From NCBI GenBank assembly GCA_038087875.1, contig CM075988.1, positions 15,130,001-15,194,000 of the forward strand: a stretch of DNA of 64,000 nt, read 5' to 3'. The first letter of the stretch is position 1, and each line of letters opens with the position of its first letter. Origin of the DNA: Malacoraja senta (lineage: Eukaryota). The notes below the pieces were generated by a model that had not been told where the DNA came from, ran no database searches, and was given only the letters and a program-made list of their open reading frames with translations. Positions 5,803 through 37,556 of the stretch are shown piece after piece. Position numbers and translations under genes: made by a program.

Positions 5803-37556
<31,754 letters not shown>

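Follow-up and report, generated by a model that had tools for sequence, protein, structure and literature searches.

The motif at 22631..22662 (+) of the window, the whole 64-kb stretch of skate (Malacoraja senta) DNA that was analysed, is on the strength of its letters a real minimal hammerhead-ribozyme sequence of the kind found in Penelope-like elements (PLEs), and the repeat that it heads can be recognised, likewise from sequence features, as the pLTR of a PLE that is abundant in the skate genome. The copies scattered through introns are very probably inert remnants that decay neutrally, derived from a PLE whose parent elements would have used a weak hammerhead assisted by dimer formation or by protein.

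Direct reading of the letters at 22633-22660 (+) gives CTGAAGA A GGAT CTCG ATCC GAAA CG T C, which matches exactly the focal sequence claimed in the earlier note, including the stem II GGAT-CTCG-ATCC at 22641-22652. The motif is of type I and comprises the helix I 5' strand GT (22631-22632), the first core box CTGAAGA (22633-22639), an extra A (22640), stem II (22641-22652), GAAA (22653-22656), CG (22657-22658), T (22659), C17 (22660) and the helix I 3' strand AC (22661-22662), with both boxes intact, a 4-bp stem II, a 2-bp helix I and a predicted cleavage site at 22660/22661 (+). The minimal PLE hammerhead has been known since 2014 and, in the available text of that account, is recognised by a nucleotide inserted after A9, by pairing of G10.1 with C11.1 and by a palindrome at 15.2-16.2 (PMC4209133). 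The core boxes CUGANGA and GAAA...UH occur in type I order in both the family consensus and the focal copy, the extra nucleotide between 9 and 10.1 is the A at 22640, and the 10.1-11.1 pair is G-C in 21 and G-U in 2 of the 25 aligned copies. Furthermore, the helix III loop is absent, with a palindromic ACGT at 15.2-16.2 in the consensus and the focal copy. The proposed reduction of helix III to a self-complementary ACGT in a PLE-type minimal hammerhead thus holds, these three defining features being present, as does the identification itself, the architecture being equal to the published consensus (PMC4209133, text and Fig. S3). Helix I of the family consensus consists of 2 bp (GT/AC) followed by two mismatches; among the published PLE hammerheads described in the same text, a 3-bp consensus is given, with 2 bp in D. 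virilis, Culex and Oikopleura (PMC4209133), and the skate helix equals the shortest of these. The Rfam/Infernal search of the window suggested as a check in the earlier note gave no hammerhead match, either at the gathering threshold or at E values up to 10, presumably because helix III is missing. Weak Rfam matches to MIR7725, mir-551 and mir-3747, all far below threshold, were rejected as hairpins of inverted pairs.

The repeat headed by the motif is 120-170 nt long. An iterated nhmmer profile identified 56 matches (31 on the + and 25 on the - strand; 4671 nt, 7.3% of the window), which extend over 4855..60987 on both strands and include 13 head-to-head pairs, while the reversed window, used as a control, gave 0 matches; its description as the commonest repeat of the window is thus borne out. 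The generic pattern CTGANGA-N5-30-GAAA is mildly enriched, with 14 occurrences against 6.67 +/- 2.69 in shuffled windows (2/100 shuffles reach 14), and 8/14 of these occurrences are members of the repeat family.

A connection to a PLE is provided by a 46-codon remnant of a GIY-YIG endonuclease C-terminus (51514..51651, +), the sole such remnant found in the window. It lies ~120 nt upstream of the hammerhead copy at 51772, with a pyrimidine-rich stretch between the two, and its best matches are skate proteins with 80-87% identity. A Pfam search of the 51514-51651 fragment itself gave no match; the longer relatives P0008 and P0015 match PF01541. The region that follows (51660..51869, +) consists of a pyrimidine-rich 3' UTR and then the hammerhead (C3 at 51772, stem II damaged) with a tail-less pLTR end. 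The position of this hammerhead copy downstream of a GIY-YIG C-terminus with skate best matches indicates that the repeats are PLE 3' ends (pLTRs), and the Penelope origin that had been suggested for them is thereby upheld. The one protein in which a Cys-rich linker of the Neptune/Nematis type was observed is relative P0015 (67% identity across the matched piece), the window being without a reverse transcriptase (RT) for phylogeny, and tblastn with seven relatives found no PLE ORF sequence further upstream in the window. Contigs of four public sequencing runs (four organisms) matching 51480-51899 numbered 35,238 to 90,187 per run; their mapping was saturated, the summed depth does not represent copy number, and the variants covered (40 of 107) did not enter per-site conservation. 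Loose ends of the run contigs extend the PLE ORF upstream, and contig X6-25 covers 51513-51790, from the ORF end through the hammerhead, in another organism. Of two metagenome scans, one gave 0 matches and the other 119 pattern matches, none of which was confirmed. The same GIY-YIG remnant is included in annotated skate proteins (P0001-P0004, P0022 and P0023; e.g. netrin receptor DCC and myocardin isoforms), which suggests read-through of gene models into the repeat, or exonisation.

Alpha-tectorin (tecta) is encoded on the + strand of the window, and a PH-domain exon of ARHGEF12 on the - strand. None of the 56 matches in the 64-kb window overlaps a tecta exon alignment, the focal copy falling between the alignments at 20191-20409 and 23232-23465. 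The hosts were thus correctly named in the claim that copies lie in both orientations in tecta and arhgef12 introns, an intronic position being presumed in the case of arhgef12. There is no evident strand bias (tecta, 22 sense vs 17 antisense; arhgef12, 4 sense vs 6 antisense). The tecta exon alignments 14182-14444 and 19758-20373 shift frame at ~14358 and ~20190, and a 200-N gap occurs at 17380-17579; these are probably assembly indels. The translations at 1-931 (-), 2779-4289 (+) and 43483-44100 (-) resemble what we take to be remnants of a Tc1/mariner transposase and of LINE ORF2, and a 71-nt inverted repeat (53025-53095 / 53618-53688; 97% complementary) has 522 nt between its halves.

Many copies of the family are arranged in inverted pairs. 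Head-to-head neighbour pairs within 72 nt number 13, against a random mean of 1.26 and a maximum of 6 in 5000 randomisations, and have left matches starting at 5579, 6730, 10783, 13388, 13633, 14485, 17806, 21725, 22450, 33722, 38471, 53862 and 56496. Exactly one arm carries an extra 3' tail in 13/13 pairs; for these calls split arms were merged and the cut-off of 110 was set after viewing the data, one arm reaching 109 with its homology ending at 94. All 13 pairs are centred on the hammerhead, and in 10/13 the arms meet within 17 nt. In the focal pair, the right, tail-less arm (22628..22881, +, with 22634-22693 plus 22829-22881 matching) is intronic and sense to tecta, while the left, tailed arm (22440..22625, -; match 22450-22561) has ~60 nt of pyrimidine-rich upstream sequence and a hammerhead that is broken in box 2. 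The right arm is split by a later insertion of another repeat (22694..22828, 135 nt), with a 10-nt direct repeat at 22682 and 22830. A weaker case of this kind is the 274-nt insertion which splits an arm at 53588-53861. Flanking direct repeats of 10-16 nt accompany 5/18 units examined, and inverted, 5'-truncated pLTRs with a one-sided tail and target duplications are an established PLE layout according to the available portions of two accounts (PMC8557442, PMC3846280). Same-strand arrangements make up 8/23 of the close neighbour pairs, none of which has two intact motifs. A three-piece unit at 5457-5724 combines two same-strand hammerhead regions 42 nt apart with an inverted arm, all three without G12.

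No UTR-like sequence is present upstream in 38/44 hammerhead-bearing matches, which indicates that in this window the 5' ends cluster at the ribozyme, within ~30 nt of the first box. The copy at 48197 was scored as UTR-like, probably through its target duplication, so that the true UTR carriers number 5/44 rather than 6/44. Some 5' ends lie within the core itself and others >250 nt upstream, as far as the ORF; 0/56 matches start at model positions 21-31 (a cleavage product would start at 28), and a significant decayed hammerhead lies upstream in 1/12 matches starting downstream of model position 20. Among the run contigs, position 51767 is a leading loose-end site in three runs, yet the depth at the ORF end roughly equals that at the hammerhead, and these data neither confirm nor refute a genome-wide clustering of 5' ends at the ribozyme. 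A splice-acceptor origin of the 5' boundary, considered on account of the pyrimidine tract and CAG before the motif, was rejected, as the CAG is retained in the copies, which have no upstream exon in common.

Both core boxes are kept in only 8/30 copies that extend to the first box, and 6/30 pass a lenient full test (strict ACGT kept in 5/6), which does not confirm the 'many potentially self-cleaving motifs' of the earlier note. Solo copies with an intact core occur at 60865..60994 (+, C3 at 60870; tailed, with a 16-nt flanking direct repeat, antisense to arhgef12) and at 15416..15540 (+, C3 at 15421; 3-bp stem II, sense to tecta). Intact boxes are also found in the minus copy of the inverted pair 6730..6944 (6730-6833, -; 6834-6932, +), which has a 4-bp helix I made by the junction, and in the solo tailed copy 48184..48329 (-; sense to arhgef12, 10-nt flanking direct repeat), in which the palindrome has changed to ATGT. 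Similarly, both boxes are present at 19370..19485 (-), without helix I pairing, and at 9374..9472 (+), where the palindrome and helix I are damaged. Seven regions of older-looking subfamilies differ in sequence just past the cleavage site (6679-6734, 6963-7073, 9075-9176, 13633-13828, 24779-24875, 38471-38519 and 43000-43108) and may preserve a different helix I. The 3' part of the pLTR forms a long stem by pairing of AGAUGCUG with CAGCAUCU (model positions ~47-54 and 105-113, e.g. 60862-61000), which is among the best-conserved blocks of the repeat (5-8% mismatch; fold z-scores not significant) and is a candidate protein-binding or RT-start structure.

The median divergence from the consensus is 12% among 36 main-family copies; per-site rates were likewise based on 36/44 copies, leaving out eight diverged, older-looking ones. 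G12 is changed in 4/29 copies and the palindromic CG in 15/68 cells. The general base G12 and the middle of the dimer palindrome are among the CpG sites of the motif, where the rate of change is 14-22%, compared to 23% for CpGs outside it, and 47/56 CpG changes are transitions. Non-CpG positions mismatch at 5.8% in the core and at 10.2% in the remainder of the repeat (p = 0.06 after trimming of the edges; p = 0.01 untrimmed, a comparison with an edge bias that inflates core conservation), while private mutations affect 4/173 core cells and 62/1899 cells elsewhere (p = 0.65, with low power from 4 events). The difference between the core and the remainder is thus gone for private mutations. The lower core mismatch would be expected if selection acted on the parent elements but ceased with insertion, weak selection on some copies being possible, and the intronic copies, most of them mutated, are likely inert.

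Stem II shows no covariation above chance. In stem II of 26 main-family copies (103 cells), 2 double changes were observed against 0.94 expected under independence (P ~0.24); a further 9 changes are one-sided with pairing retained, and in 14 cells the pair is broken. In the 25-copy alignment the covariation score was reached by 37/500 shuffles and the both-side pair count by 251/500, and stem II partners slid by -3 score as high as the true pairing (0.152 vs 0.147). None of five covariation measures applied to the 25 copies was convincingly above shuffles (the observed value being attained in 37 to 251 of 500), in a set of few (25-26), neutrally decayed copies in which parent-level covariation could stay hidden. 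Of the covariation originally described, the G-C to A-T change at 22643/22650 is thus real, but double changes do not exceed chance; GGGT TTCG GCCC is present as claimed at 60870-60897 (+) and 19458-19485 (-), but its U.G pair is a one-sided change. The letters of the stem I GGGT/ACCC at 6803-6838 (-) are also present, but the 4-bp stem is a product of the inversion junction: its outer G's are contributed by the neighbouring inverted copy starting at 6834, in which they correspond, as reverse complement, to a strand of stem II. Helix I longer than 2 bp arises at inversion junctions in the copies of the window.

In folds with a 400-nt context, the predicted probability of stem II is <=0.02 in 6 of the 8 copies with an intact core, among them the focal copy, and that of helix I is ~0 in 8/8; stem II is retained in the copies at 9378 (0.91) and 48197 (0.37). 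The near-zero stem II probability of the focal copy is explained by the predicted pairing of its first core box with the antisense arm, which is suggestive of sequestration by the inverted partner 22440-22625 in a + strand transcript. The focal double-hammerhead fold is predicted at -2.1 kcal/mol against -17.7 kcal/mol for the best cofold, and would thus be ~15 kcal/mol less stable, although nearest-neighbour energies omit core tertiary contacts and real hammerheads score poorly. Since most cores are broken, the decay has a neutral appearance and an antisense partner holds many copies in hairpins, the data do not support the earlier note's implied pool of active ribozymes in introns, and the family carries little weight as such a pool because its copies look decayed.

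The hammerhead is likely to have served the parent element, probably by cleaving tandem transcripts weakly, with the help of dimer formation or of protein. With a helix I of 2 bp and no helix III, the monomer is predicted not to cleave and a protein-free dimer would do so poorly at best; for the Schistosoma motif, with a helix I of 4-5 bp, the available text reports an uncleaved monomer and low dimer cleavage (PMC4209133). The parents would have kept the catalytic core, since fewer of the variants common to several copies fall in the core than in other parts of the repeat. The PLE protein may have primed reverse transcription at two nearby sites that lie ~65-70 and 95-100 nt 3' of the cleavage site, from which tail-less and tailed arms would have resulted, as seen in vitro for an anole PLE. 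The templates were presumably uncleaved RNA, as no copy begins at the cleavage site. Short cDNAs would have ended around the hammerhead and been joined head to head, often via GTC/GAC microhomology, and after insertion the copies would have mutated without selection on the core. We infer the helix I and activity of the parent, because no intact parent element was seen in the one window analysed in detail.

A role for the hammerhead that was non-catalytic even in the parents, with helix I eroded to 2 bp and the motif kept as an RT-stop or head-to-head-junction structure, has a low though appreciable probability and is partly compatible with the explanation given above. The 2-bp consensus helix I would accord with it, although helices of this length also occur among published PLE hammerheads, as far as the text of that survey goes (PMC4209133). 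It would likewise account for the pile-up of 5' ends within ~30 nt of the first box (38/44 without UTR) and for arms that meet within 17 nt in 10/13 pairs; however, the summed contig depth of the GIY-YIG end, which is not a copy number, is similar to that of the hammerhead, so that the pile-up may be weaker genome-wide, and a C-rich tract just upstream could cause RT to stop instead. In the portions of the literature available, catalytic mutants of the anole PLE left in vitro insertion unaffected (PMC11167929) and Naiad PLEs thrive without canonical hammerheads (PMC8557442), whereas the scarcity of shared variants at the catalytic nucleotides themselves fits parental selection for catalysis. 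It is less probable again that the hammerhead was mainly a boundary element, which halts RT and provides microhomology for the head-to-head joining of two short cDNAs, so that palindromic mini-insertions of 200-440 nt, centred on the ribozyme, are produced in large numbers; such a role, if true, would be a non-catalytic answer to why PLEs keep hammerheads.

The short units could also constitute a non-autonomous, SINE- or retrozyme-like family whose transcription begins just upstream of the hammerhead and which is mobilised by the PLE protein in trans, a possibility that is considered unlikely. The sharp 5' boundary would be expected of such a family, and the solo copies at 60865 and 48329, both with direct repeats, begin 6-14 nt upstream of the first box; furthermore, non-LTR retrozymes are proposed to be pLTR-derived and are present in one chondrichthyan, according to the accessible part of a preprint (10.64898/2026.07.22.740005). 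However, the variation in 5' ends, from inside the core to >250 nt upstream and up to the ORF, and the lack of same-strand neighbours with two intact motifs argue against it, and ordinary PLE 5' truncation accounts for the units. Co-option by the host of copies such as 22633 or 15421, both sense within tecta introns, as active intronic ribozymes is highly improbable. While no core nucleotide of the focal copy has been lost and its 4-bp stem II includes a double change, and domesticated intronic hammerheads exist in amniotes (PMC6155905, in the part available), that double change is expected by chance, no Rfam hammerhead match was obtained, the closest sense partner with an intact core lies at a distance of 7.2 kb, pairing between the motif and its antisense arm is predicted, and strand bias is not evident (tecta 22 vs 17; arhgef12 4 vs 6). 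Finally, a chance resemblance, for which it could be said that the short generic pattern occurs ~7 times in shuffled windows and that Rfam finds no hammerhead, is scarcely credible, given that every family-specific feature of the published PLE motif is found here, and in the position to be expected, downstream of a GIY-YIG ORF.

As remnants of a PLE with a weak, assisted hammerhead, the skate copies form a further case of the ribozyme class described in 2014. No paper was found that names a skate PLE hammerhead family, although the preprint supplements or Lunse et al. 2017 may list examples, and a term search of the available portions of PMC7229834 and PMC6155905 and of part of the PMC4209133 supplement found no skate PLE hammerhead. 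Hammerhead-bearing repeats are reported in one chondrichthyan in the part of the preprint available (10.64898/2026.07.22.740005). The family shares with the minimal hammerheads of metazoan PLE pLTRs, as presented in the available parts of PMC4209133, the type I layout, the CUGANGA box with its extra nucleotide, the G10.1-C11.1 pair, the GAAA-C-G-U-H without loop 3, the site in the pLTR downstream of RT/GIY-YIG, and the prevalence of solo truncated copies, with opposite-strand pairs and high sequence variability. The Acropora Neptune example has an identical stem II length of 4 bp with a 4-nt loop (PMC4209133, same parts). The skate family differs in that its host is absent from the part of the supplement searched, in a helix I of 2 bp versus the 3-bp consensus, and in the lack of detectable within-family covariation in the window. 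For the Poseidon element PAc of Anolis carolinensis, the accessible text describes two RT start sites that give tailed and tail-less ends, uncleaved RNA as the main template, and a hammerhead that cleaved only when protein was added (PMC11167929). The skate family resembles PAc, so described, in its tailed and tail-less ends, and 0/56 starts near the cleavage site fits an unprocessed-RNA template; unlike PAc, it is represented in the window without an ORF start or intact ORF, and it probably belongs to another clade, given the Neptune/Nematis-type linker of relative P0015. It is similar to non-LTR retrozymes, as far as the portions available describe them, in carrying a type I hammerhead in short, non-coding, pLTR-related repeats (PMC7229834; 10.64898/2026.07.22.740005), but has no head-to-tail arrays and a minimal rather than canonical motif. 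The inverted pLTRs of EN+ PLEs, in the parts of PMC3846280 and PMC8557442 available, share the head-to-head 5'-truncated copy, the microhomology junctions, the 30-40-nt tail at one end and the ~10-nt target duplication. The skate units, in contrast, measure only ~200-440 nt and have the inversion centre at the hammerhead in nearly all pairs, an arrangement not stated in those parts of the two accounts. Skates thus join the hosts of PLE minimal hammerheads at high density (56 repeat matches in 64 kb), and the family constitutes a large natural record of breakpoints that bears on the role of these hammerheads in PLEs.
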